DNA of 42,068 nt from a virus (IMGVR_UViG_2585427763_000002); one strand, 5' to 3'. Shown: positions 1 through 42,068, counted from the first letter of the stretch. The notes: a model not told the origin generated them from the letters alone. Translations and numbers: made by a program.

Positions 1-1284
1 CTACTTCTTCGCCTCTGCAACCACTTTGCTACCCACGCCGCGGTTATTGTATTCCCACATGCGGTTGTAGTTAGTGTCATTCAGATTGCGCTGTACTTCG
101 TCGTTATCATCAACGCTGCCGGTGTTACCCGCAAACGGACGATTAGAGATCACCGCATCAGCCCACGGTTTGGCTGTGTTAAAACCTTCGTTGATGGCGC
201 TATCACGGATCACTACCTGACCGTTGGTATTGGCATCAACATCCAGCGAGCGGCCCAGTTGCGCCACGCCATCACCGGAAGCATTGAAACGGCTGTTTAC
301 GGCGAGGAAACCGTAGTAAATGTTGGACAGCGTAGCCGGTGCAAACACATACGCTTCTTGCTGGGTACGGGAGTTCACCACGCGGAATTCGGTGTTATCG
401 AACACCACTGCGCCGCGACCAGAAACGATATCCACATCCCCTTCAATATAGCTGTTGGTCACCAGCGTACGCGGCTGGCGATTCGTTTCCAGACGGTTCT
501 GCACACCGCTGTTGGTGACAAAGAAGGTGTTCTGACGACCGAGAATGTTGACGTTATTGATCTGCACTTTGTCGCCATCAGTACGCAGTGCCACCGCCGG
601 ATGGTTACCCGCATCTACGCTATCGCCCAGCGTGTTTTCGATGGTCAGGTTTTGCAGTTGCAGGCCATTGTTTTGTGACCAGAAGACCGCAGAGCAGAGA
701 ACACCGATACTGTCGCTGCGTTTACTCTGGCAGCTATCGTACATATACCACGCCGGTTTACCTGGCATATATTTGCCGCGCGGGTTGACGTCGTGACGCC
801 AGTCGGCAGGGCTCATGCCACCATCAAGGGAAAGCCCAATCTTCACATCAATCGGTTTTTCACCTGTACCGTACAGAGTAATTCCACCCGGAGCGGCAGG
901 GACATACACCGTTCCCTGATACTCACCAGGCATCACGGCAATATACTGGCGCTTGTTGGTACGCTTGATAATTGCCGCATCTACCGCCGCCTGAATCGTG
1001 GTATGCGTTACACCTTGAGTACCCGCCGGGCCGACAACAAAGTCAGGTTGCGCAGGCAGGGTAATCGGGGAAGGATTCCACGCTGCCGCACCTGGTGTCA
1101 GGGATGCAAAATAGTGTTGAGCATCGAAATTCTGCGCTTCTTTTGCCGACAGAATCGGGCGCGAAGAGGTACCAGGCGCGGTTTGATCAGAAGGACGTTG
1201 ATCGGGCGGTGTTGAGCTACAGGCGGTCAGCGTCACGCCAAAAGCCAATGCCAGCGCCAGACGGGAAACTGAAAATGTGTTCAC
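1..1284 (-). CDS. ybhC: Outer-membrane lipoprotein YbhC (pectinesterase-fold acyl-CoA thioesterase family); host gene flanking attB-lambda
   Basis: 427-aa ORF with signal peptide and lipobox (LTAC); sequence recalled as E. coli YbhC; lies directly left of the lambda att core. Confidence 0.85.
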   Translation of the reverse strand: MNTFSVSRLALALAFGVTLTACSSTPPDQRPSDQTAPGTSSRPILSAKEAQNFDAQHYFASLTPGAAAWNPSPITLPAQPDFVVGPAGTQGVTHTTIQAAVDAAIIKRTNKRQYIAVMPGEYQGTVYVPAAPGGITLYGTGEKPIDVKIGLSLDGGMSPADWRHDVNPRGKYMPGKPAWYMYDSCQSKRSDSIGVLCSAVFWSQNNGLQLQNLTIENTLGDSVDAGNHPAVALRTDGDKVQINNVNILGRQNTFFVTNSGVQNRLETNRQPRTLVTNSYIEGDVDIVSGRGAVVFDNTEFRVVNSRTQQEAYVFAPATLSNIYYGFLAVNSRFNASGDGVAQLGRSLDVDANTNGQVVIRDSAINEGFNTAKPWADAVISNRPFAGNTGSVDDNDEVQRNLNDTNYNRMWEYNNRGVGSKVVAEAKK

Positions 1285-2790: not shown

Positions 2791-3135
2791 TTAGTCCTTG
2801 CGTAACTCGCTAATTCTTCTGTAAGTCTCTGGTGCTTTGTTTCCGTGTATCTTCATTTCAGACTTCAACAGAGCAACGAGGGAATCCCATTCGGTGAGGA
2901 TGCCTTTGAATGCAGGAACGCGCTTTGCAACCTTGTCGAATGAATCTCTGATTTCTGGGATCTGCTCAACCAGTGCAACGCATCGTCGGAAATCGGCTGC
3001 GTCATGTGGAGCGCCGAAGTGATGACCATAGATATTCTTTTTCAGTCCACATGCGATTGAGGCAAGAGTTGCGCTACTGATGCCGACATCGCCAGTCGAT
3101 TGCCATTTCAAAACCTTCATAGCCAAATCTGACAT
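2791..3135 (-). CDS. Hypothetical early-left protein
   Basis: 114-aa ORF with GGAGA RBS; position equivalent to lambda ea genes; no family recognised. Confidence 0.55.
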   Translation of the reverse strand: MSDLAMKVLKWQSTGDVGISSATLASIACGLKKNIYGHHFGAPHDAADFRRCVALVEQIPEIRDSFDKVAKRVPAFKGILTEWDSLVALLKSEMKIHGNKAPETYRRISELRKD

Positions 3136-3235: not shown

Positions 3236-3991
3236 TTAGCCATGGTTAACCTCCTGCGGCGGTTCTGGTAGCGGCATCCAGTGTGATGGAATCCACGACG
3301 CACCAGGAATTATCCAACCATCATTAGCGTCAGGATGTCCCGGTATGTAAGTCGCCCACTTCATTCGCCAGTCACCTTTCCCGTCAAACTCCCTGGCAAC
3401 AAGAACAGCTGTTTTGCTATCCGGCATTCGCTCACTACAGCTTATCCAACCATCCGGAGTTACCGGATAGTTGCCAGCCAGTCTACGCAACACAGCCTTA
3501 ACGGCCTCAATACGGTCATCATCAACTTTTTCTACAATATTGGAATTTAAATACTTCGAAGCCTTGCTATGCCAATCGCTGGTTTTAGGGTCTTGTCCAT
3601 CCATCAAACGCCAAGCTTCAGCGATTAACTCATAGCCAGTAACAGTGGCTTCCTGCGCATCACCAATCAGTTGTGTGATCTCTCTTTCAAGCATGCTTAG
3701 AGCGTTAGGCATTGGTTTTTCTTCCGGTACTACTGGAACGGGTGGAGCGGCGTAGACCTCAATAATTCCATTATCAATAGGCCATTCTCCATCCTTGAGG
3801 TAGTCACTTGTGCCGTCAACTTGCTGTTCTGCAATGTGGAATGCACCTATTGGTTTTGCTTCCAGCGATGCCAGAGCAATCCGTGCCAGTTCTTCCGCTT
3901 CTTCTGCTGGCAGTACAACGTTGCTACCCGGTCCGTATGTTTCGCGCCACTGCTTGATTGTCAGCAGTCGCCCTTTGGTAATAGTGATCAT
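3236..3991 (-). CDS. DUF551-domain phage protein
   Basis: 251 aa; C-terminal ...SCSERMPDS...SHWMPLPEPP typical of DUF551 proteins of lambdoid early regions; start ATGA-overlaps upstream stop. Confidence 0.65.
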   Translation of the reverse strand: MITITKGRLLTIKQWRETYGPGSNVVLPAEEAEELARIALASLEAKPIGAFHIAEQQVDGTSDYLKDGEWPIDNGIIEVYAAPPVPVVPEEKPMPNALSMLEREITQLIGDAQEATVTGYELIAEAWRLMDGQDPKTSDWHSKASKYLNSNIVEKVDDDRIEAVKAVLRRLAGNYPVTPDGWISCSERMPDSKTAVLVAREFDGKGDWRMKWATYIPGHPDANDGWIIPGASWIPSHWMPLPEPPQEVNHG

Positions 3992-4503
3992 GCCGCGTTT
4001 CCTTCTTTCTTATTAACAATCACACCGTCATATATTTCATTAAGGTGCCCTCTCAACTCCATGCGCCTTAATGCAGATAACATGTAATCGCATTCAACCT
4101 GCTTATTCCCAGTAAATGGCTTATCGTCAGGATTACCCCAACAGCAATTACCCCTGGGCCATCCATGTACTTTCCGTACTCTTCCGTTAACAACGTGAAG
4201 TAATCCCCAGCCGGGAGGTAAATCCTCAACTGAAATAATTTCCGGCTCACTAATAAAGAATCGCCAGTCGCCCATGCCAAGTGAGGGATTTTTACGGAAA
4301 CGCTTTTTTCTATCTGCCAACAAGTCAGCACGAGAACACTTCGCCTCTATCAGGCATGATGCTGAATTTCTGAATCCCATAGCATCTGGCTGTTCTCCGG
4401 TACTGGTTACAGCAACAAAGCGGTCATGAAAGCAAACCTTGAACCCGTTGCGCTTAAGGAACTTGTACGCAATCTGACAGAGTTCGTGGTGTGTTAACGC
4501 CAT
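3988..4503 (-). CDS. PD-(D/E)xK nuclease-like protein (family not identified)
   Basis: 171 aa from ATG at 4503 (TGATATG coupling to upstream gene); motif EQPDAMGF...(16 aa)...IEAKCSRADL fits PD...(D/E)xK. Confidence 0.5.
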   Translation of the reverse strand: MALTHHELCQIAYKFLKRNGFKVCFHDRFVAVTSTGEQPDAMGFRNSASCLIEAKCSRADLLADRKKRFRKNPSLGMGDWRFFISEPEIISVEDLPPGWGLLHVVNGRVRKVHGWPRGNCCWGNPDDKPFTGNKQVECDYMLSALRRMELRGHLNEIYDGVIVNKKEGNAA

Positions 4504-4504
4504 A

Positions 4505-4990
4505 TCACTCTCCTTTGATGCGAATGCCTGTTGCAATGCTGTTTATGATGCTGTCAGTGCATGGGGTAGAAAGCTGGGCATCTCCAGCAATTTTCATGAC
4601 CTCAACATCTGCATATCGAATACCGAGGTGTATCAGACCGGCTATGCCTGACTTAAGCCGAGCATTTTCCATAAATAGAACTTTTGCCCGCTGTTTTTCT
4701 GCTTCAAGCTCAACGCGCAGCTTCCCTACCGTTAGCGCAATATCCTCGTTCTCCTGATCGCGGCTTTTGATGTATTGCAGGTTTCTTTCCCGTTCATCCA
4801 GCAGTGCCAGCACGGTTTCTGGTCCGGTCAGAAATTTGAAGGCGTTGAGCGCATCAATATCCACACCGTAATCTTTAAGTTCCTGTTCACTTAACAAATC
4901 ATCATCAGCTGGCAACATTAACAGGCGTTCCATTGCTGGAATTGCACGTTCCGCCACCTCACGCAATGCCTGATAGTTAATTTGGGTCAC
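4505..4990 (-). CDS. Hypothetical protein, possibly Ead/Ea22-like
   Basis: 161-aa ORF, GTG start overlapping upstream stop (GTGA); coiled-coil-rich; family assignment from memory only. Confidence 0.5.
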   Translation of the reverse strand: MTQINYQALREVAERAIPAMERLLMLPADDDLLSEQELKDYGVDIDALNAFKFLTGPETVLALLDERERNLQYIKSRDQENEDIALTVGKLRVELEAEKQRAKVLFMENARLKSGIAGLIHLGIRYADVEVMKIAGDAQLSTPCTDSIINSIATGIRIKGE

Positions 4991-5211
4991 TCTTCATCCT
5001 CCAAGTCGGCAACGGCGTCCATCACATCAGAACCGCGAATAACCTCAAAAGCACGGCAGGCCATTTGAAATACCAGTTGCTCTTGCGGATGCGGTGATTC
5101 CCAATATTTGAATCCAGGGCGATGCGCGTACCCCATCATTGAATAAAAATCACCAGCAAGCTTAATCGCGGCATCAACAAGCTCTCTGTTAGTCATTCTT
5201 TTTCCGCTCAC
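4987..5211 (-). CDS. Hypothetical small protein
   Basis: 74-aa ORF (GTG at 5211, alternative ATG at 5196); translationally coupled within leftward operon. Confidence 0.45.
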   Translation of the reverse strand: MSGKRMTNRELVDAAIKLAGDFYSMMGYAHRPGFKYWESPHPQEQLVFQMACRAFEVIRGSDVMDAVADLEDEE

Positions 5212-5765
5212 TGGTTGCCTCCTTTGCGAAGCTGGGCGGCGATATCTTTGAGAACGCCATCAGAGAATGAGCGGTCAAAATCTCCTTCCGGCGCATTAGC
5301 CATAAACTCAGTAGAGGTAAGGATCATCCGGGCAATATCCGCGGCGTTCTTCGCAGTATCATCAATAAAACCAGCTTTCCAGGCTGCCAACATTCTGTTC
5401 GCCACAAAATAAGCGCCTTCCTTGCGTGCTTCAGTCTTCCCTTCAGCCAGAAAAGCATCGGTGGCTGGGGTTTCAGTAACATCATCTTCCCATTCGCTAA
5501 ACTCCTCACGACAAAAGTCATTAAATTCCTTCTCAGATTGCTTAAGCGAGGTATTTTCTGCAGCCATCTTCGCGCATTTAGCCTCAAGGTTATCAATCGT
5601 GATTCCAGCAGAACGACACTCCCGCAACGCCGTTTCCAGTTTTGATTCAAGTTCACCGAACTTACGGACAAGATATTCAGCGTTTGTTTCGTTAACCTTT
5701 AAATCTCGTGGTAAGCATTTACCTTTCAGAAATCCATCCATCTCAATTAGTGACATTTGTTTCAT
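5208..5765 (-). CDS. Hypothetical protein, possibly Ead/Ea22-like
   Basis: 185 aa from ATG at 5765 (RBS GGAGTGGGAAG upstream; ATGA overlap with upstream stop); acidic, coiled-coil-rich. Confidence 0.5.
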
Positions 5766-5944
5766 TTCTTCCCACTCCGCCACATCGCATTCAGATATTT
5801 GTTTTGATTTACTGAAGGAAAAGAATTTCTCTTAAGCAATTCCTCTCTCGATGGCATTGGCTTTACGCGTTGGCGAATAATCATTTCTGCCGGAAGAATG
5901 CCGGGATTGTATGCAAGTCCTCTCATGGTAAATTCCTCAGTCAT
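5762..5944 (-). CDS. Hypothetical small protein
   Basis: 60-aa ORF whose ATG overlaps stop of 5937-6233 gene. Confidence 0.35.
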
Positions 5945-6233
5945 TACTGATAGCGCCATAGCGTGAGCGGTAATTACGCAGGCGCGGGTCGATATATTCA
6001 GGGAAGTGGGTATATGTGGCTTTGCGGAATGGTCGGATTGATGTCTGGTAAATTCGCTCGCGTTCTTCTTTCTCTGCAAGCCATATACAGTGGCGAAATT
6101 CCTTTTCCTCTTTCGTTTCCTGCGGTAGAGACATTATTCGATCGTAGTTTTTTCTGAATTTATCCAGCACCTCCGATACGGAATTGCCGGAACAGCGGCG
6201 CGGGTCATCCGCACCATACAGAGGCGCTGGCAT
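5937..6233 (-). CDS. Hypothetical protein
   Basis: 98-aa ORF with GGAGA RBS (CAGGAGAAAATCATG on minus strand). Confidence 0.5.
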
Positions 6234-6246
6234 GATTTTCTCCTGA

Positions 6247-6753
6247 TTAAATTGCGTGAATAGCGTGACGAGGGAAGGGGAGAGTTACTGGTGCAAAGGG
6301 TATATCGTCGTCAAAATCCATCGGAGGTTCGTTGTGTTGTGCTGGTGATGATTGCTGCTGTGGCTTCTGTGATTGCCTGCTGGCTGCTTGTTGTTTGCTG
6401 TCGCCAATGCCGCCAAGCATTTGCATCACGCCATTAATTCCGACATGAACCTCGGTTGTGTAACGGTCTTGCCCTGACTGGTCTTTCCACTTTCTGGTTC
6501 TCAGCATTCCCTCGAAATAAATCTGATCACCTTTTTTCACATACTGCCCCACGACCTCAGCCAGTTTCCCGGATACAGCAACACGATGCCATTCAGTCAA
6601 TTCCTTTTGCTCGCCAGTATTTTTATCTCGCCATTGTTCTGAAGTGGCTATTGTCAGGTTAGCGAACGCTGTACCTGATGGTGAGTATCGAACTTCCGGG
6701 TCTTGTCCTACCCGACCAAGGATAATCACCTTATTTACGCCTCTGCTTGCCAT
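6247..6753 (-). CDS. ssb: Single-stranded DNA-binding protein (SSB)
   Basis: 168 aa; N-terminal OB-fold [44 protein letters not shown]..., Gln/Pro-rich linker and acidic C-terminal tail DFDDDIPF. Confidence 0.9.
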
Positions 6754-7461
6754 TTATGCCGCCTGTTTTAGTTCGTTAACTCTGATGTTCATTACCTGAA
6801 CGCATTTAGCCTGCGCCTCCTCGTTGCCAGCCATTAATTGCCAGTCACGCTGATAACGCTCGATGAGTTTTTTCTTGTCAGTTTCTGTTGACGCATAATC
6901 GCTGAAGTCTTTCAGGATTTGTTCGCAGTCAACCGATGGAGATTTCTGGTTGGTATTTTCTGGTGATGGTTTGTTATCTGATGCTGGGATTGCCCATCCC
7001 GGCAGCGATGGAGGGAGCCAGTAAAATCCTGTTCCATCCTTCAGTTTTGCCCTGTGCCACCCATGCTTTTTATCGAGAGATGTTTGTGCGAAACCTTCCT
7101 CAAGGTTATACAGATACCGACCGATTCCCCACTGAACGGCAGCACGCTTCATTGCACCTGAACGACCACCTTTGACAGCTTCTACCTGCGTGTTTTCAGC
7201 AGCATCCCATTTGGTTACCCATTCGGAATCAATCTTTATTGATATGCCGCATTCAACGCCGCCGTTGTTGGGAATATCGCGGTATTCATTGCGCCATCCT
7301 GCTTTGCCACAAACATCGTCAAGGCGTTTCATGATTGCCCGGTTCGTGACATAAGCCAGCACCATAGCCCACACCTTGCCATCGCGTGTTTTACCGCTTT
7401 GCTGTATTCGCCATTCGATATCTTCAGGGCAGAATGGCTCATCGAATTTGTTCAAATCCAT
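6754..7461 (-). CDS. Rad52/Sak-family single-strand annealing recombinase
   Basis: 235 aa; stop abuts ssb start; motifs recalled from phage Rad52/22 family (GKVWAMVLAYVTNRAIMKRLDDVCG). Confidence 0.7.
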   Translation of the reverse strand: MDLNKFDEPFCPEDIEWRIQQSGKTRDGKVWAMVLAYVTNRAIMKRLDDVCGKAGWRNEYRDIPNNGGVECGISIKIDSEWVTKWDAAENTQVEAVKGGRSGAMKRAAVQWGIGRYLYNLEEGFAQTSLDKKHGWHRAKLKDGTGFYWLPPSLPGWAIPASDNKPSPENTNQKSPSVDCEQILKDFSDYASTETDKKKLIERYQRDWQLMAGNEEAQAKCVQVMNIRVNELKQAA

Positions 7462-8995: not shown

Positions 8996-9322
8996 TCAAA
9001 TAAGTGGTTTGCTGCCTAATTTCATTTTCTGGCGACCAACACATGTCACACCCATTTCACTGCGTGGCTTGCTGTACCATGTGCGCTGATTCTTGCGCTC
9101 AATACGCTGCAGGTTGCTTTCAATCTGTTCGTGGTATTCAGCCAGCACCGTAAGGTCTATCGGATTCAGTGCGCTTTCTACTCGTGATTTCGGTTTGCGA
9201 TTCAGCGAGAGAATAGGGCGGTTAACTGGTTTTGCGCTTACCCCAACCAACAGGGGATTTGCTGCTTTCCATTGAGCCTGTTTCTCTGCGCGACGTTCGC
9301 GGCGGCGTGTTTGTGCATCCAT
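8996..9322 (-). CDS. N: Antitermination protein N, lambda type
   Basis: MDAQTRRRERRAEKQAQWKAANPLLVGVSAKPVNRPILSLNRKPKSRVESALNPIDLTVLAEYH... recalled as lambda N, including the arginine-rich boxB-binding motif. Confidence 0.9.
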   Translation of the reverse strand: MDAQTRRRERRAEKQAQWKAANPLLVGVSAKPVNRPILSLNRKPKSRVESALNPIDLTVLAEYHEQIESNLQRIERKNQRTWYSKPRSEMGVTCVGRQKMKLGSKPLI

Positions 9323-9494
9323 CTGGATTCTCCTGTCAGTTAGCTTTGGTGGTGTGGTAGGTGGGAGACCCATTTCGACCTGCTTCGGCCGACTTCAATT
9401 CGGCAATAGTTCCGCAGGCCTCGCCGCTTTACGTGCGACATATTCCCATCCATGAACCCTTCACCACACCCCAAAGCCTTCTGCTTTGAATGCT

Positions 9495-9718: not shown

Positions 9719-10378
9719 TTAACTAAATGTCTCTTCAGGCCACTGGCTGGCGATAACTTTCCCTACTACGGAACAGCTATCATTGCATGGAATCATTGGA
9801 TATTGCGGGTTTAGTGGCTGTAGGAACACCTGACCGCTATCCCTGATCAGTTTCTTGAAGGTAAACTCGTCACCACCAAGTCTGGCTATGCAGAAATCAC
9901 CTGGCTCAACAGCCTGCTCAGGGTCAACGAGAATTAACATCCCGTCAGGAAAGCTTGGCTTGGATCCTGTTGGCGCGGTCATGGAATTACCTTCAACTTC
10001 AAGCCAGAACGCACAATCACTGGCTTTTTTGGTTGTGCTGACCCATCTCTCCGCATCACCTTTGGTAAAGGTTCTAAGCTCAGGCGAGAACATCCCGGCC
10101 TGAACATGAGAAAAAACAGGGTACTCATATTGTTTTTTTAACGGGGCAGATGAGTATTCGCCAACAGGTGAAAATGTACCGTCGTGGTTGAATGAGACGT
10201 TATCAATACCAAGGTATTTAAACACCACACCAATCTCGTCAAGAGATGGATGACGAGATCCGCGCAACCAGTGACCAATTCCACCCTGCGTCATACCAAG
10301 CTCTTCAGCTAACTTCTCTTGAGTTATGCCGAGTTCTTTCATTCTGGATCTAGCCAGTTCATACCATTTCATTTTCAT
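9719..10378 (-). CDS. cI: CI-type immunity repressor (HTH domain + S24 LexA-like autopeptidase domain); hybrid with lambda-like C-terminal domain
   Basis: C-terminal ~140 aa ([35 protein letters not shown]...[24 protein letters not shown]...) recalled as near-identical to lambda CI; N-terminal HTH differs (start chosen at [17 protein letters not shown]; 10453 ORF start unlikely). Confidence 0.85.
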
Positions 10379-10489
10379 ATCCTTATTATTACGCTCTGTA
10401 CTAAAACCATCCATGCACAAGATGTATTTTTTGTTTGCATTCCAAAAGTACATATCGTATTATTGTTTCATGGTTACTATGGAGGGCAT
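10379..10489. promoter_or_regulatory. OR operator region with divergent pRM/pR promoters
   Basis: 111-bp AT-rich divergent interval between cI and cro starts; operator half-sites not confidently resolved. Confidence 0.55.
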
Positions 10490-13478: not shown

Positions 13479-13634
13479 ATGACAAATCAGCAGCAAATAG
13501 AGTTCATCCTTGAGCAGATTCGAAAAATGCGAGAAAAGAACCAGCCAGACATGATGGAACTATGGAGACGGCAGCGGGAAGAATGGCACAGGCATATTTT
13601 GGGTGAGAGAAAATGGGATGGATGGAGCCTATAA
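13479..13634 (+). CDS. Hypothetical small protein
   Basis: 51-aa ORF (MTNQQQIEFILEQIRKMREKNQPDMMELWRRQREEWHRHILGERKWDGWSL) with RBS AAGGAG; below ORF-track cutoff. Confidence 0.4.
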   Translation: MTNQQQIEFILEQIRKMREKNQPDMMELWRRQREEWHRHILGERKWDGWSL

Positions 13635-13666
13635 AATGGCGTGGCGTTTTGTTAGTTGAGGTGACA

Positions 13667-14134
13667 ATGAAGCAAATATACATGCTTCGCAACGAAGCAA
13701 TCAGAAACAACGCCATAGACGCAATACTCTCACTTCCGATCGACGACAAGTCACCTCACGAAGTCCACATTAAAGAACCAAAGCGGAGCAATCCTCAAAA
13801 CCGCCTTATGTGGGCGTTATTGCAGGACGTATCACGTCAGGTGCTTTGGCATGGAAAGAGACTTGCGCCGGAGGACTGGAAAGATCTGTTCACTGCCCTG
13901 TGGCTTAAGACCAAAAAACTGGAGCAACGAAGTGCGCCTGGTATCGACGGTGGCGTTGTTATGCTTGGTGTGCGTACCAGCAAAATGCGAAAGGCCAGCA
14001 TGACTGAGCTTATCGAAATCATGTTTTGGTTCGGCTCAGAGCGCAACGTGCGGTGGAGTGATGACTCCCGGCGAGAGTATGAATGGTCACAACGGAAAGG
14101 TAACACGGACAATATGCGAGGGTTGAATGATTAA
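13667..14134 (+). CDS. ninB: NinB (Orf-family recombination mediator)
   Basis: Start ATG 13667 after GAGGTGA; ...NPQNRLMWALLQDVSRQVLWHGKRL...WSD... resembles lambda NinB. Confidence 0.8.
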   Translation: MKQIYMLRNEAIRNNAIDAILSLPIDDKSPHEVHIKEPKRSNPQNRLMWALLQDVSRQVLWHGKRLAPEDWKDLFTALWLKTKKLEQRSAPGIDGGVVMLGVRTSKMRKASMTELIEIMFWFGSERNVRWSDDSRREYEWSQRKGNTDNMRGLND

Positions 14135-14657
14135 GCATAAATCAGAAACACCAAAAGAAGTTAGAGACTGCTGGCAAACGCCGCTTTGGCTTTTTGATGC
14201 ACTGGATATTGAGTTTGGATTCTGGCTGGATTCGGCAGCGAGCGACAAAAATGCTCTGTGTGCTCACTGGCTAACTGAGTCCGACGACGCGCTCAATTCT
14301 GAGTGGATAAGCTACGGTGCAATCTGGAATAACCCACCGTACAGCAATATCAGACCGTGGGTGGAAAAAGCCGCTGAGCAGTGCATACAACAGCGACAGA
14401 CGGTAGTTATGCTTGTGCCAGAGGATATGTCAGTCGGATGGTTCAGCAAGGCTCTGGAGAGTGTCGACGAAGTTCGCATTATCACTGATGGACGGATTAA
14501 TTTTATCGAACCATCGACAGGGTTGGAGAAGAAGGGAAACAGCAAAGGCTCCATGCTGCTGATTTGGCGACCGTTCATCAGTCCTCGACGGATGTTTACT
14601 ACCGTATCCAAAGCGGCATTGATGGCGATCGGGCAGGGCGTCAGGAGGGCGGCATGA
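14127..14657 (+). CDS. Phage DNA N6-adenine methyltransferase (Dam-type)
   Basis: 176 aa with catalytic NPPY motif ([10 protein letters not shown]); overlaps ninB stop. Confidence 0.85.
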
Positions 14658-15192: not shown

Positions 15193-15368
15193 TGCTTAGC
15201 CCATCCCAATCCATTCAATACCAGAAAGAAAGCGTCGAGCGAGCTTTAACGTGCGCTAACTGCGGTCAGAAGCTGCATGTGCTGGAAGTTCACGTGTGCT
15301 CAGATTGCTGCGCAGAACTGATGAGCGATCCGAATAGCTCAATGTACGAGGAAGAAGACGATGAATGA
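15192..15368 (+). CDS. ninF: NinF (Cys-rich small protein)
   Basis: 58 aa, [58 protein letters not shown] recalled as lambda NinF; TAATG coupling; not in ORF track (<60 aa). Confidence 0.65.
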   Translation: MLSPSQSIQYQKESVERALTCANCGQKLHVLEVHVCSDCCAELMSDPNSSMYEEEDDE

Positions 15369-16083
15369 GTTAATAAATGGCAATGCTATCAAAATGACAA
15401 GCATTGAAATCGCTGAGTTGGTGGGTAAGCGTCAAGACAATGTGAAACGTACCATCGAAACGCTGGCTAAAAATGGTGTTATCCGGCTTCCTCAAATTGA
15501 GGTTTCCGAAAGAATCAATAACTTAGGGTTCAATGTTCAGTACGAGCATTACGTCTTCGAAGGCGAACAAGGTAAGCGAGACAGTATTGTCGTTGTTGCC
15601 CAGTTGTCGCCGGAATTCACCGCTCGTCTTGTTGACCGTTGGCGAGAGCTTGAGGAAACTGCGGTTAATATCCCCAAAACGCTACCAGAAGCGTTGCGCC
15701 TTGCTGCTGATCTTGCTGAGCAGAAAATGCAACTGGAAAACCAGCTCGCAATTGCCGCACCTAAAGTTGAGTTTGCCGATCGCGTTGGCGAGGCCAGCGG
15801 AATTTTGATTGGAAACTTTGCAAAGGTTGTCGGTATTGGTCCAAACAAACTGTTTGCGTGGATGCGTGATCACAAAATCCTTATTGCTTCAGGTTCCCGG
15901 CGCAATGTGCCAATGCAGGAATATATGGATCGCGGCTATTTCACAGTGAAAGAAACAGCGGTCAACACAAATCACGGAATACAGATATCGTTCACCACAA
16001 AAATCACCGGGCGTGGTCAACAGTGGCTGACCAGAAAGCTGCTCGATAACGGAATGCTGAAAGTAACAGGGGAGGCTGCTTAA
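15361..16083 (+). CDS. Roi/Rha-like DNA-binding protein with KilA-C-type antirepressor domain
   Basis: 240 aa; position between ninF and ybcO-like/rusA as for roi of HK022-like phages. Confidence 0.65.
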   Translation: MNELINGNAIKMTSIEIAELVGKRQDNVKRTIETLAKNGVIRLPQIEVSERINNLGFNVQYEHYVFEGEQGKRDSIVVVAQLSPEFTARLVDRWRELEETAVNIPKTLPEALRLAADLAEQKMQLENQLAIAAPKVEFADRVGEASGILIGNFAKVVGIGPNKLFAWMRDHKILIASGSRRNVPMQEYMDRGYFTVKETAVNTNHGIQISFTTKITGRGQQWLTRKLLDNGMLKVTGEAA

Positions 16084-16373
16084 TGGCTAACCTACGCAAA
16101 GAAGCGCGCAACAGAGAATGCCAGGTACGTATTTACGGCGTATGCAATGGCAATCCTGAAACTACAGTTCTGGCACATTACCGGATGGCTGGAATTTGCG
16201 GAACGGGAATGAAACCTGACGACCTGATCGGCGCATGGGCTTGTAGTGACTGCCACGCGGAGATCGACCGACGCACAAGGATTCTCGACAACAAAGACGC
16301 CAGACTTTACCACCTCGAAGGCGTGATAAGGACGCAGGCGATACTGCTGAAGGAGGGGAAGATTAAGCCATGA
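16083..16373 (+). CDS. YbcO-like (DUF1364) putative nuclease
   Basis: 96 aa with conserved Cys/His pattern (RECQVRIYGVCNGNPETTVLAHYR...CSDCHAEID) recalled from DLP12 YbcO. Confidence 0.7.
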   Translation: MANLRKEARNRECQVRIYGVCNGNPETTVLAHYRMAGICGTGMKPDDLIGAWACSDCHAEIDRRTRILDNKDARLYHLEGVIRTQAILLKEGKIKP

Positions 16374-16732
16374 ACGAATATCAGTTTGTGCTTCCATACC
16401 CGCCGTCGCTGAACACCTACTGGCGAAGACGGGGGAGTCAATACTACATCAGCGATAAAGGCCAGAAATACCGAAAAGACGTTCAGCAAATCATCCGCCA
16501 ACTTAAGTTAGACATTTTCACCAAATCACGACTCCGCATCAAAGTCATCGCAGACGTTCCAGACTCCCGCCGCCGCGACCTCGATAACATCCTGAAAGGT
16601 TTACTCGACTCCCTTATCCACGCCGGATTTGCGGAAGACGACGAGCAATTCGATGACATTCGCGTAATTCGTGGTGTGAAAGTACCAGGCGGACGGCTTG
16701 GAATAAAAATCACCGAACTGGAGAACGCATGA
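16370..16732 (+). CDS. rusA: RusA Holliday-junction resolvase
   Basis: 120 aa; PPSLNTYWRRRG...RRRDLDNILKGLLDSL...DD..F matches RusA family. Confidence 0.85.
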   Translation: MNEYQFVLPYPPSLNTYWRRRGSQYYISDKGQKYRKDVQQIIRQLKLDIFTKSRLRIKVIADVPDSRRRDLDNILKGLLDSLIHAGFAEDDEQFDDIRVIRGVKVPGGRLGIKITELENA

Positions 16733-36784: not shown

Positions 36785-37708
36785 ATGAAAAGTATAGCAA
36801 CAGCAGTATCTACTATCAATGTACCATTCCACGGCGCAGAGCTTTATGTTGTCAATCACAACGGTGAGCCGTACACCCCAATGAAACCTATCGTTGAGGG
36901 AATGGGTATGGATTGGGCTTCACAGTTTACAAAGTTAAAACAAAGATTTGCTAAAGGTATTGTGGAAATCGCAATACCTTCAGTTGGCGGTGTGCAGAAC
37001 ATGATTTGCCTTGCTTTACGTAAACTTAATGGCTGGTTGCAAACCATCAGTCCTAACAAAGTCCGCCCTGAAATCCGCGACAATGTAATCCAGTATCAAG
37101 AAGAGTGTGACGATGTGCTATACGAGTACTGGACTAAAGGCCATGTAGTTAACCCACGCAAAGCTAAAAAGGCGTTGCCGGGTAAAATCACCACTGAGCA
37201 GCAGGAAGCCATTAAACAACTCGTCATGAGTCGCGGTCAGTCTCTGCCAAAAGAAAAACAGGCTAAGGCGATGATCACCATGTGGTCGTCACTGAAATCC
37301 CATTTTGGATGTTCGTACAAAGAAATCAGTGAGGAGCAGTTTACCGAAGCACTATCGCTTGCAGCTCGAGTTCCACTTGAAGGTGAGTTCATTGGCAAAC
37401 AAGAGAAGAAAACCAACGAGCTTTCTGCAAAAGAAGCAAACAGCCTTGTATGGCTATGGGATTATGCCAACCGCTCACAGGCATTATTCCGCGAATTGTA
37501 TCCGGCGCTAAAACAAATTCAATCGAACTATTCAGGCAGATGCTACGACTACGGTCATGAGTTCTCGTATGTTATCGGAATGGCGAGAGATGTTTTAATT
37601 AATCACACACGAGATGTTGATATCAATGAGCCAGACGGACCAACGAATCTTTCTGCATGGATAAGACTTAAGAACAAAGAATTACCTCCTTCAGTACATA
37701 ACTACTGA
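36785..37708 (+). CDS. ant: Antirepressor (Ant-like)
   Basis: 307 aa downstream of arc-like gene as in P22 immI; followed by strong terminator. Confidence 0.65.
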   Translation: MKSIATAVSTINVPFHGAELYVVNHNGEPYTPMKPIVEGMGMDWASQFTKLKQRFAKGIVEIAIPSVGGVQNMICLALRKLNGWLQTISPNKVRPEIRDNVIQYQEECDDVLYEYWTKGHVVNPRKAKKALPGKITTEQQEAIKQLVMSRGQSLPKEKQAKAMITMWSSLKSHFGCSYKEISEEQFTEALSLAARVPLEGEFIGKQEKKTNELSAKEANSLVWLWDYANRSQALFRELYPALKQIQSNYSGRCYDYGHEFSYVIGMARDVLINHTRDVDINEPDGPTNLSAWIRLKNKELPPSVHNY

Positions 37709-37808: not shown

Positions 37809-39881
37809 ATGACAGACATTACAGCCAATGTTGTAGTGAGTATGCCTTCGCAACTCTTCACTATGGCGCGTTCTTTTAAAGCCGTAGCCAATGGCAAAAT
37901 TTATATCGGTAAAATTGACACTGACCCGGTAAATCCTGAAAACCAGATTCAGGTTTATGTGGAGAACGAAGATGGTTCTCACGTTCCTGTTGCACAGCCA
38001 ATCATCATTAACGCTGCTGGTTACCCGGTATATAACGGACAGATTGCCAAGTTCGTAACTGTGCAAGGCCATTCTATGGCTGTTTATGATGCATACGGTG
38101 TGCAGCAGTTCTATTTTCCTAATGTGCTGAAGTATGACCCGGATCAGTTGCGACAGCAATTATTAAACCCTGACACTGGCCTAGGAGATGCGCTTGTTAT
38201 TGTTAAACAGCCATATGCTGGTTCTGTACCTATTACTCAACATCAGCACAACACCTATCTCCTTACCCCTTACCACTTCGCAGCAAAGGGAGATGGTATT
38301 ACAGATGACACTCTTGCCCTAAACCGCTGGTCCAATTGCGGAGCTAAGGTACTCTATTGGCCAGCAGGAAAATATCTGGTGAGCCCTACAAATGGTGTTT
38401 CTCTGGATATGGATAACTACCATACAGGGGATTCCGCACTAACGGCGTGCGTAACCGTTCCCTATGGCGTGAAAATTTATACGGCTGGGACAGAAACCCA
38501 GTTATGCGTGAAGGATGCTGACTCAGCATCGACCGTAGGTCTGGCCGTTAGCTACCCGGAGTCAAGTTATTCCCAGGGAGAAACCGACATCGGAAAATTC
38601 ATGATTCGCCTGGAAAACGGAAATGGTCGGTACGGTATTCTTACTCCACTCAGGGGGGAAATGTTCACTGCGCACCGGGCGAAGTTCAAATTAGGAGCGC
38701 ATTTCGGTCCTCAACAGGGGCGTGATGACCTGACGGTGCTACAGTATTCGTGGGTAAATGGCATGCTGATTGGCGACGCTTTTAGCGGCTCAGTGCATGT
38801 CACTGGATACGGCAGCTATAACGTACAGCAGGTTGAAGGTACGCAATTCCAGTGCGTGGCCGTTAAGATGAAGTCCGTTCGAGGTAACGTAGGTGTAGAC
38901 ATCAGATTCAACACAAACAACTGGTGGAAGTTTGTCGAACTGAGTGACGGCGTTGAAGGGTTTGTTGTCAAGGACAGCGAAGGGCTTGGGGCATTTGTTG
39001 GAATCGACCTAACCAACCCAGCCAGCGAGCCAGGTGGATTTATCGATAACGTACACGTCAACGTTAAGCAAAACGGAGTACGAGCCAGAAACAGGCCATC
39101 CCTGCAAATCGGAAACATTGAAGTCTATAAAAGTGATGGATTTGCCACTGACCTTGTTTACGATGCGGTGCTTCTGGTTGACTGCCAGGAAGTGACTATC
39201 AACTCTATTCACGCAATCGTCGGCAACTCAATCACAAATGCTCAGTCAGTAGTTAACTCGACAAACAGCACATTCCGCCTGAACTCATACTTTGCGCAAA
39301 ACATCAGGTTCGTCGATTTTGTGGTTAATAGCCCTGACTGCTATGTCGGAGAGGGGACAATTAACCAGGTCGAGGCAGTTCACTCACTTTCTGGATCACA
39401 AAGCAACGACTTCCACGGTAGTGATGTTCTGGTTAGATCCTACAGAAACAACGTTCGCCCACTTTACGCAGTGATGGATTCCGCTTTCAACAGGGCAAGG
39501 GCGAGGTTTCCACAAAATACAAGCCTCCAGGTGAGAACCTTTCTCGACTACACTGTGGCAGCAGCTGGGACTTTAACAATAGAACCAAGGCTTGACCCAT
39601 CCAGGTACTACATCATCATGAGTGCTGGTACAGGTGCCTTCACCTATTCAATTGAGCTGGATAAAGTGTCTGCCGTAGTTGGTGATATTGTTTACATAAA
39701 GATAGCCGGGTCATCATCTGCTAACCCAACAGTTTTGGTTAAAAATGGTATTGGTGGGACAACGCTCAGCACATTCAATAATATCGGTCCGATTCGTTTG
39801 AATTGTGCTTACAGATTTAATGAGTCAGGTAACTGGGTGGCCTACTACATTACCCAAAGCGTTGAAACCACTTATGGCTAA
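37809..39881 (+). CDS. Tailspike protein (P22 gp9-type head-binding domain with a different receptor-binding domain)
   Basis: 690 aa; N-terminus [59 protein letters not shown]... recalled from P22 tailspike; remainder diverges. Confidence 0.85.
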
Positions 39882-40352: not shown

Positions 40353-40829
40353 TTAACTAAACATCGCAGTAATCGAGGCACTCGCCAGAGAGTGAAAATG
40401 AACGTTAAACCCGACCATCGCGCCGCTGGCACCTTCATCGACATCAATACGTTCTACATCCAGCGCGTGAACGGTAAAAATGTAGCGATGGGTTTCGCCT
40501 TTCGGCGGCGCTGCGCCATCGTACCCGGTTTTACCAAAGTCGGTACGCGTCTGCAAAACGCCGTCTGGCATAGCTACCAGACCAGAGCCAAACCCTTGCG
40601 GTAATACGCGGGTATCAGCGGGTAAATTAACAACTACCCAGTGCCACCAGCCGGAGCCGGTTGGCGCATCCGGGTCATAGCAGGTGACAACAAAACTTTT
40701 CGTTCCCACAGGAACATCATCCCACGCCAGATGCGGTGAAATATTATCGCCATCGTAACCCATGCCGTTAAAGACATGACGATGCGGCAGCTTATCGCCA
40801 TCGCGCAGATCGTTACTGATGAGTTTCAT
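40353..40829 (-). CDS. ybhB: YbhB (PEBP/Raf-kinase-inhibitor-like protein); host gene right of attB-lambda
   Basis: 158 aa recalled as E. coli YbhB; adjacent to B' arm. Confidence 0.85.
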   Translation of the reverse strand: MKLISNDLRDGDKLPHRHVFNGMGYDGDNISPHLAWDDVPVGTKSFVVTCYDPDAPTGSGWWHWVVVNLPADTRVLPQGFGSGLVAMPDGVLQTRTDFGKTGYDGAAPPKGETHRYIFTVHALDVERIDVDEGASGAMVGFNVHFHSLASASITAMFS

Positions 40830-40839
40830 TAGAATGCCT

Positions 40840-42068
40840 CCGGGAAACCTCGGCCTTCAGACCGGGGAGGAAAGGAGGCGGTTTTCCGACTAACTGTACT
40901 TTGCATAATCACATTTTCCTCTTTAGTATGTGAACACATGAAACGCGCATATAAATACCGGTTTTACCCGACAACTGAGCAGGCTGAGCTTTTAGCTCAG
41001 ACGTTTGGCTGTGTGCGCTTCGTCTACAATTCCATCCTTCGTTGGCGTACCGATGCGTACTACGAGCGAAAAGAAAAGATCGGTTATCTACAGGCCAACG
41101 CTCGCCTTACGGCGCTCAAAAAAGAGCCTGAATACATATGGCTGAATGATGTTTCCTGCGTTCCCCTCCAGCAGTCGTTGCGCCACCAACAAGCCGCCTT
41201 TGCTAACTTCTTTGCCGGACGAGCTGCATATCCGGCTTTCAAAAGCAAACGGCACAAACAGGTGGCTGAGTTCACTGCCAGCGCGTTTAAACACCGTGAC
41301 GGCGAGTTGTATATAGCAAAGAGCAAGTCGCCGCTGGATGTTCGCTGGAGTCGAGAATTACCATCTGCGCCGTCAACCGTTACCATTTCCAGAGATAGCG
41401 CTGGCAGGTACTTTGTTTCCTGCCTGTGTGAGTTTGAACCTGTATCAATGCCTGTTACCGCTAAAACGGTCGGCATTGATGTGGGCTTAAAAGATTTATT
41501 CGTCACCGATACCGGATTCAAAACCGACAATCCCCGCCACACCGCTAAATATGCGAAGCGATTAACGCTGCTACAGCGACGTTTAAGCAGGAAGCAAAAA
41601 GGCTCAAGAAACCGTATTAAAGCCCGCTTAAAGGTCGCCCGACTCCACGCGAAAATCGCCGATTGCCGGATGGACAATCTGCACAAGTTGTCCCGCAAAC
41701 TGATTAACGAAAACCAAGTTGTTTGCGTCGAATCCCTCAAGGTGAAAAACATGATCCGCAACCCGAAGCTGTCTAAAGCAATAGCTGACGCAGGCTGGAG
41801 CGAACTTGTTCGCCAGCTCCAGTACAAAGGCAAATGGGCCGGGCGGTCAGTGGTCGCCATTGACCAGTATTTACCGTCCTCAAAATGCTGTAGTTGCTGC
41901 GGTTTCACCATGCAAAAAATGCCTCTTAATGTTCGTAAATGGCACTGCCCTGAATGCGGCGCAGACCATGATCGCGACATTAACGCGGCACGTAATATTA
42001 AAGCTGCCGGGCTGGCAGTGTTAGCCCACGGAGAGCCTGTAAACCCTGAATCGCAGCACGCGGCTTAG
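40840..42068 (+). mobile_element. tnpB-only IS200/IS605-family element (left end and tnpB; right end lies beyond window)
   Basis: Imperfect palindromes (CCTCCGGGAAACCTCGGCC...CCGGGGAGG) upstream of tnpB, consistent with a subterminal hairpin; no tnpA in window. Confidence 0.45.
40938..42068 (+). CDS. tnpB: TnpB (IS200/IS605-family OrfB, RuvC-like RNA-guided endonuclease)
   Basis: 376 aa; C-terminal zinc finger CCSCCG...CPECG; typical N-terminus MKRAYKYRFYPTTEQAELLAQTFGCVRFVYNS; stop at window end. Confidence 0.85.
   Translation: MKRAYKYRFYPTTEQAELLAQTFGCVRFVYNSILRWRTDAYYERKEKIGYLQANARLTALKKEPEYIWLNDVSCVPLQQSLRHQQAAFANFFAGRAAYPAFKSKRHKQVAEFTASAFKHRDGELYIAKSKSPLDVRWSRELPSAPSTVTISRDSAGRYFVSCLCEFEPVSMPVTAKTVGIDVGLKDLFVTDTGFKTDNPRHTAKYAKRLTLLQRRLSRKQKGSRNRIKARLKVARLHAKIADCRMDNLHKLSRKLINENQVVCVESLKVKNMIRNPKLSKAIADAGWSELVRQLQYKGKWAGRSVVAIDQYLPSSKCCSCCGFTMQKMPLNVRKWHCPECGADHDRDINAARNIKAAGLAVLAHGEPVNPESQHAA

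Follow-up and report, generated by a model that had tools for sequence, protein, structure and literature searches.

The closest described relatives of the gene considered here are the MmcB proteins. In Caulobacter crescentus, MmcB is an SOS-induced PD-(D/E)xK endonuclease needed to tolerate mitomycin C and cisplatin (PMC9578287), and it is thought to remove interstrand crosslinks together with translesion polymerases (PMC9578287; bioRxiv 10.1101/2022.06.10.495655). The family, mostly alphaproteobacterial and chromosomal, is known as DUF1052/PF06319/COG5321 and is represented by the structure 3dnx (PMC3424549); PF06319 has been placed beside the archaeal Holliday junction resolvases (PMC1189080). 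The protein in 3dnx is Ruegeria pomeroyi SPO1766, and the sequences retrieved alongside it are named “MmcB family DNA repair protein” and fall in PF06319. The subject of this report, a small protein encoded in the early region of an E. coli prophage, is very probably a DNA-cutting enzyme and a previously unlabelled relative of MmcB.

The window (the whole stretch of DNA analysed, 42,068 nucleotides) holds a P22/HK620-like E. coli prophage with a late region 96% identical to that of HK620 and its relatives; its features are collected in the table. On the minus strand the genes run leftward from the repressor through N, a set of small genes, the annealase, SSB, and Abc2, and continue with an Eae-like gene, PHROG 4132, Ead/Ea22, the target gene, a DUF551 gene, PHROG 1229, xis, and int. 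The target accordingly sits in the mosaic ea region of the leftward early (N to int) operon, downstream of N, and the positions of N, the repressor, and int/xis on that strand bear out the earlier note, which had placed it among ea-type genes of a leftward early operon. The rightward operon carries CII, O, a DnaC-like loader, NinB, Dam, NinX, an antirepressor, RusA, and Q. Transcription of the leftward operon presumably begins upon infection or when the SOS response triggers cleavage of the S24-type repressor.

Coordinates of the target gene, its elements and its neighbors in the window
Feature	Position	Strand	Basis or remark
MmcB-like/AHJR-like PD-(D/E)xK nuclease homologue, divergent, 171 aa (target)	3988..4503	-	PHROG 9263/631
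Codons E37-x-P-D40 ... E53-x-K55, predicted catalytic core	4339..4395	-	conservation, alignment with Hjc and MmcB
Codon D27, extra conserved acidic residue directly past beta1	4423..4425	-	E/D in 135/136
Codons E137 to R147, C-terminal helix (..E....SALRR..)	4063..4095	-	common to MmcB (AARRL)
Shine-Dalgarno GGAG, within the end of the upstream Ead/Ea22 gene	4510..4513	-	sequence read directly
Ead/Ea22-like protein, upstream neighbor	4505..4990	-	PF13935 at 1.9e-30
DUF551 protein, downstream neighbor	3236..3991	-	PF04448 at 1e-20
Pectinesterase-like gene, left flank	1-1284
int (lambda-type) / xis	1419-2685	-
Abc2, anti-RecBCD	5937-6233	-
SSB	6247-6753	-
Rad52-like annealase	6754-7461	-
N	8996-9373	-
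S24/HTH repressor	9719-10453	-
Dam, only methylase found in the window	14127-14657		rightward operon; ~10 kb from the target
RusA	16370-16732		rightward operon
PEBP-family gene, right flank	40353-40829
IS605-type TnpB, cut, right flank of prophage

The open reading frame has the limits, length, and strand previously given for it. Its longest version would start at TTG 4536. The ATG at 4503 follows a GGAG box (4513-4510) with a spacer of 6 nt, and homologues from many genera start at the equivalent MALTH/MSLTH position; together these make ATG 4503 the likely start. Translational coupling to the upstream neighbor had been proposed from the sequence TGATATG, and the junction is as described, the Ead/Ea22 stop TGA (4507-4505) standing one base ahead of the target ATG (TGAtATG). 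At the other end the target TGA (3990-3988) overlaps the ATG of the DUF551 gene (3991-3989), giving ATGA at 3991-3988, an overlap that had gone unmentioned. The two junctions indicate that Ead/Ea22, the target, and DUF551 are packed head to tail; a consensus scan for a promoter or terminator isolating the target gene found none that was convincing and nothing over shuffled expectation.

Assignment of the protein to a family depends on profiles. Searched singly against Pfam, NCBIfam, PADLOC, and the PDB, the target gave no significant match (in Pfam, none at E <= 1). It is a full-length member of PHROG 9263 (E 1e-120) and PHROG 631 (E 1.5e-93), neither of which has a functional label; the MmcB link proposed here supplies one. 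A profile of close homologues (A1) reached 3dnx in the PDB at only E 0.31. With a broader family profile (A2), hmmsearch of the PDB found 3dnx at E 1.7e-4 over 110 positions, followed by Hjc chains. Alignment of A2 to an alignment of 24 MmcB proteins with hhalign gave 98.0% probability and E 2.9e-13 over 124 columns (residues 8-150), so that profile methods detect homology to MmcB across the whole domain. Below threshold, a Pfam scan of 50 family members matched Hjc in 26, MmcB-like in 15 (best E 2.9e-4), and AHJR-like in 7. The PF06319 gathering threshold of 22 bits was not reached: the target had no match, and the relative P0268, the single MmcB-like match with a bit score, had 16.9 bits. 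Likewise for Hjc (PF01870, threshold 21.1 bits), the target had no match and relatives reached, for example, 16.9-17.7 bits. By these sequence comparisons the target branch is homologous to MmcB and is best described as a large phage-borne sister branch of PF06319/COG5321, close to the Hjc clade; membership proper is not claimed for it because it falls short of the Pfam PF06319 threshold.

Structural modeling agrees with this assignment. An AlphaFold2 model built on 26 homologues (mean pLDDT 84.3, pTM 0.78) has its elements in the order helix 5-18, strand 22-25, strand 41-45, strand 48-54, helix 58-64, and strand 80-85, followed by a hairpin (100-113) and C-terminal helices. This is an alpha-beta-beta-beta-alpha-beta core of the restriction-endonuclease-like kind. 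The target had been called PD-(D/E)xK nuclease-like from its sequence, with the proviso that a structure prediction without a restriction-endonuclease-like fold would tell against the call; the predicted structure has that fold. D40 stands directly ahead of strand 41-45 and E53/K55 at the end of strand 48-54, the arrangement of a PD-(D/E)xK enzyme with its D at the start of beta2 and (D/E)xK on beta3. Foldseek against the PDB returned no matches at E <= 0.001, and 3dnx was absent from the list; against predicted viral structures (BFVD) it returned unnamed relatives and phage proteins named MmcB family or MmcB-like DNA repair. Judged from the model, the target is predicted to have the same three-dimensional structure as 3dnx, the solved member of PF06319.

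The residues expected to do the chemistry are also the ones that are kept. Both motifs singled out in the earlier note are present, EQPDAMGF at residues 37-44 and IEAKCSRADL at residues 52-61; the distance of 16 residues given between them was near but inexact, since the motifs start 15 residues apart and D40 lies 13 residues ahead of E53. The predicted catalytic core spans the end of the beta1-beta2 loop, beta2, and beta3, and the PD-(D/E)xK call itself stands, D40/E53/K55 being aligned both to the Hjc catalytic residues D42/E55/K57 and to D39/E53/K55 of MmcB proteins. Conservation was read from 148 aligned sequences, the best representatives of clusters at 50% identity. Within the core, E37 and D40 are each kept in 141/142 representatives, and E53 and K55 each in 143/144. 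Just beyond it come D60 (144/144), D64 (146/147), K67 (146/147), R70 (146/146), G78 (148/148), and R81 (147/148). Position 27 is E or D in 135 of 136, with D27 aligned to the invariant E28/E29 of MmcB proteins. Toward the C terminus, E137 is found in 130/142, R146 in 119/141, and R147 in 123/141; the helix that bears them (134-150 in the model) aligns to R133/R134/L135 of MmcB. A D...ExK string by itself is weak evidence, but the conservation here is strong, and the alignment shows the motif to be more than a chance occurrence.

The several Cys and His residues downstream of the motif, offered earlier as a functional hint, are present in the target; as a hint they were misleading. C120, C121, C138, and H153 show no conservation and vary freely across the 148 representatives. 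A zinc or Cys/His site is rejected on this ground, and no metal site is marked at these residues because they are unconserved.

The proximity to Hjc raises the question of whether the protein could be a resolvase of that type, a dimer cutting four-way junctions and debranching replicated or recombined phage DNA before packaging. The weak Hjc matches in 26/50 family members, the alignment of the catalytic residues, and the placement of PF06319 beside archaeal Holliday junction resolvases (PMC1189080) all speak for it. Against this, the similarity to Hjc is much weaker than that to MmcB, and the extra C-terminal region and the K67-G78 insertion of the target are missing from Hjc. RusA and NinB, encoded by the phage itself, may leave little need for another enzyme at junctions or forks, a point that weighs also on the preferred reading set out below, and NinG or RusA also adjoin relatives elsewhere. 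We regard an Hjc-type resolvase as plausible from its family but unlikely.

Relatives of the gene are widespread. By tblastn they occur in 642 phage records, including Stx-converting phages, Klebsiella phages, Vibrio siphoviruses, and Vi01-like Ackermannviridae. Among 1.84 billion cluster representatives (50% identity), the family profile found 3296 at E <= 1e-3, of which 2417 reached E <= 1e-10; the distant relatives looked up lay mostly on short metagenomic contigs. Of 5426 complete E. coli genomes, 928 carry the gene itself at >= 90% nucleotide identity, with up to six copies and with copies on plasmids too; the E. coli copies, including those in Stx-converting prophages, are always annotated “hypothetical protein.” A scan of genome contigs with A1 gave 24 loci, all gammaproteobacterial, a sample that is not a census. 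Longer family members resemble read-through into adjoining Ead/Ea22, DUF551, and dATP/dGTP pyrophosphohydrolase genes, and one has a TniB-like ATPase at its N terminus.

The company kept by these relatives bears on function. A walk over three same-strand genes on each side in 82 loci found ea-region genes as the only recurrent neighbors (DUF551 31, Ead/Ea22 20, Eae 18), and these in enterobacterial prophages only. The 105 neighbor proteins of 39 distant viral loci were, by Pfam, a mixture of DNA-metabolism genes: C5, N4/N6, and Dam methylases, RdgC, DnaB, NinG, NinB, YbcO, SSB, SNF2, dATP/dGTP pyrophosphohydrolase, and others, with no fixed partner gene recurring among them. In the virulent Vibrio phage MAR10, a relative comes directly after DNA polymerase, primase/helicase, and an SNF2 helicase, overlapping the helicase stop. 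The relative in Vi01, likewise virulent, adjoins the gp61 primase gene, and a TARA contig has a 5'-3' exonuclease and a C5 methylase near its relative. This replication-gene context, with the lack of a constant partner, leads us to infer a stand-alone endonuclease of phage DNA metabolism.

Much the same observations could be turned toward genetic conflict. An accessory nuclease of this sort may serve anti-defense, destroying host defense nucleic acid or a defense signal, or may itself provide defense or superinfection exclusion; the earlier note had raised an anti-defense or defense nuclease. The target is a single gene with no fixed partner, its place is the mosaic ea region, flanked by the recombination genes and xis/int and with changing neighbors, and its spread is patchy (the fraction of E. 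coli genomes above, with <=6 copies, and the plasmid copies). The mosaic ea region of lambdoid prophages is a site of dispensable, sometimes anti-defense genes, an observation that counts against the preferred reading of the target as a stand-alone enzyme of phage DNA metabolism. Nevertheless, PADLOC-DB 2.0 gave no match at E <= 0.1, the replication modules of virulent phages contain relatives, and the closest characterized relative is a DNA-repair protein; that the operon is silent in the lysogen argues against a defense encoded by the prophage. A conflict nuclease is therefore unsupported by these results and seems to us rather improbable.

Pairing with a methylase would make the protein the endonuclease of a restriction-modification system, with a phage methyltransferase protecting the DNA. 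The window offers Dam alone, in the other operon and at the distance given in the table, and most loci of relatives are without an adjacent methylase: methylases amount to 5 of the 105 neighbor proteins in the distant loci, and orphan methylases are common in phage early regions in any case. The 171-aa protein is also without a separate DNA-recognition domain. Restriction-modification pairing was rejected for want of an adjacent methylase in the window or in most loci, and we hold it to be extremely improbable.

The leading suggestion of the earlier note was a recombination exonuclease that would supply the Rad52-like annealase with resected DNA ends. The PD-(D/E)xK enzymes include lambda Exo and RecE, and the target shares an operon with the annealase and SSB. 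The two genes are nevertheless not adjacent, with five genes between them, and a homologue of this annealase lies within 6 kb in 0/80 viral loci with a relative; nor do RecT, Erf, or Rad52 appear among the 25 listed of 41 neighbor families. The gene recurs unchanged in phage Lys8385Vzw, where the early region is a different one and the 12.5 kb shown include no annotated annealase. Resection has another possible source in this phage, which encodes Abc2; P22 Abc2 recruits or redirects RecBCD to supply resection. Neither sequence nor fold reveals similarity to YqaJ, lambda Exo, or RecE, and a domain of the YqaJ/lambda-Exo type was found by neither route. Synteny has largely refuted the suggestion, and a partnership with the annealase now looks very unlikely.

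On balance, then, we favor a stand-alone, divalent-metal-dependent PD-(D/E)xK endonuclease, of the MmcB sister branch, that deals with damaged or branched phage DNA, a reading we hold with moderate confidence. The protein would be made soon after infection or when the SOS response induces the prophage and would act alone, without a fixed partner. By analogy with the superfamily, D40, E53, and D27/E37 would hold Mg2+, K55 would act as general base or water activator, and the conserved basic residues K67, R70, R81, R146, and R147 might grip the DNA backbone. The enzyme is most likely structure- or lesion-directed, not sequence-specific; damaged or branched DNA, as opposed to a specific sequence, would be its substrate. 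Candidates include stalled forks, crosslink- or adduct-blocked replication intermediates, flaps, and the junctions that arise from phage replication and recombination. Its role would be analogous to that proposed for Caulobacter MmcB.

A narrower version of this idea, “induction-repair,” can be envisioned. The agents that induce lambdoid prophages, such as mitomycin C and UV, also damage the prophage DNA, and this would be why the early operon supplies an endonuclease: by incising crosslink- or adduct-blocked phage replication intermediates, it would let the damaged prophage template be copied. The task of this enzyme in virulent phages would be to free blocked replication forks at the replisome. 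We consider the idea distinctly unlikely in this specific form. If it is true, it would amount to a phage-encoded pathway of lesion or crosslink processing hitherto undescribed. A second novel reading, also improbable, is the anti-defense nuclease considered above, directed at a host defense nucleic acid.

A PD-(D/E)xK nuclease in a phage early operon will be no surprise to the specialist, and the gene is common in phages; the find fills an annotation gap and is not a new kind of system. What is useful is the link to MmcB, together with how large the family is. A functional handle is gained for a “hypothetical protein” that is very common (928/5426 E. coli genomes; ~3300 clusters), and the MmcB-like family, described as mostly alphaproteobacterial and chromosomal, gains a large phage-borne branch. 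Such a branch may offer a tractable E. coli/phage system in which to study the biochemical activity of MmcB. More speculatively, should the protein aid the replication of damaged prophage DNA, it would bear on the induction of Stx phages by DNA-damaging antibiotics.

Comparison with known nucleases places the target at graded distances. With lambda Exo, RecE, and YqaJ it shares the broad PD-(D/E)xK superfamily and a home in phage early operons, where those enzymes are found with annealases. The match is limited to the generic core, and the target shows neither adjacency to nor co-occurrence with an annealase; it is also considerably smaller, with no sign of a toroidal processive enzyme. Hjc (PF01870) and the AHJR-like nucleases come closer, sharing the core fold, the catalytic triad positions, and the “IE-x-K-S-R” signature, with Hjc departing in the insertion and C-terminal region noted above. 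The phage branch also differs from MmcB, in a 7-residue insertion with conserved K67, R70, G76, and G78, in an invariant E37-x-P ahead of the D, in W99, and in a longer C-terminal region, and it belongs to the phages and prophages of Gammaproteobacteria whereas MmcB is chromosomal and mostly alphaproteobacterial (PMC3424549). Even so, the likeness to MmcB extends over the whole domain: both are single domains of about 150-170 aa, with an acidic residue past beta1, the pattern D...E-x-K-S-S/C-R-x-D-F/L-x-x-D, then G..W..R-F/Y and LP..G-L, and a C-terminal A-x-R-R-L helix. Both, moreover, would be made after DNA damage, MmcB through LexA and the SOS response (PMC9578287) and the phage protein, presumably, through repressor cleavage and an N-dependent operon.

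Together with its DUF551 neighbour and part of the Ead/Ea22-like gene, the MmcB-like nuclease homologue belongs to a block (window 3250-4822) that recurs at about 95% identity in three P1-like phage records (H8-H10), and plasmids account for 248 of 1297 matches in E. coli. This distribution suggests that ea-region cassettes are exchanged between lambdoid prophages and P1-type phage-plasmids. Relatives of the homologue also occur in the virulent phages MAR10 and Vi01 (see the table), where helicase or primase genes directly adjoin them. The tblastn alignment of the Vi01 relative with the window protein is limited to the relative's own N-terminal ~110 residues; a 205-aa model among the predicted viral structures of BFVD matches across 164 columns.

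Residues 14-103, in the N-terminal part of the DUF551 protein, gave a weak match to the PglZ model of PADLOC (E 8.7e-4, 15.8 bits), which is probably spurious, and the same gene carries the wrong label “valyl-tRNA synthetase” in phage Lys8385Vzw. Zero Pfam matches were obtained for the three early-operon genes assigned to PHROGs 1229, 4132, and 614. At the start of the nuclease homologue gene, a scan marked positions 4486-4508 of the + (antisense) strand as an inverted repeat resembling a terminator, which covers both the Ead/Ea22 stop codon and the start codon of the homologue; the total of terminator-like sites in that scan lay no more than about 1.5 sd from the shuffled expectation.

The recombination kit of the phage is composite, with its parts split between the leftward and rightward operons, and neither Abc1 nor a dedicated exonuclease was identified among the window genes scanned. 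Two antirepressor-type genes are present, one adjoining the tailspike gene and the other lying within the nin region.

Features of the window and of related phage loci
Feature	Sequence	Coordinates	Strand	Remark
Pectinesterase-like ORF	window	1-1284	-	left flank of prophage
PHROG 1229 gene	window	2791-3135	-	PHROG “unknown function”
DUF551 gene	window	3236-3991	-	
PHROG 4132 gene	window	4987-5211	-	PHROG “unknown function”
PHROG 614/Eae-like gene	window	5208-5783	-	PHROG “unknown function”
Rad52-like annealase, SSB, Abc2 anti-RecBCD	window	5937-7461	-	leftward operon
NinB	window	13613-14134	+	rightward operon
Rha/KilAC-type antirepressor	window	15361-16083	+	within nin region
RusA	window	16370-16732	+	rightward operon
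P22 AR-type antirepressor	window	36785-37708	+	adjoins tailspike
Tailspike	window	37809-39881	+	P22-like head-binding domain
PEBP-family ORF	window	40353-40829	-	right flank of prophage
IS605-type OrfB/TnpB gene	window	40938-42068	+	beyond PEBP-family ORF; cut by window end
Homologue relative	Vibrio phage MAR10 (L002)	4866-5480		
Homologue relative	Salmonella phage Vi01 (L003)	3980-4597		205 aa

Host genes lie on both sides of the prophage. The attB site of lambda is flanked by ybhC and ybhB; this would fit the integrase of the prophage, which is of the lambda type with an arm-binding domain.
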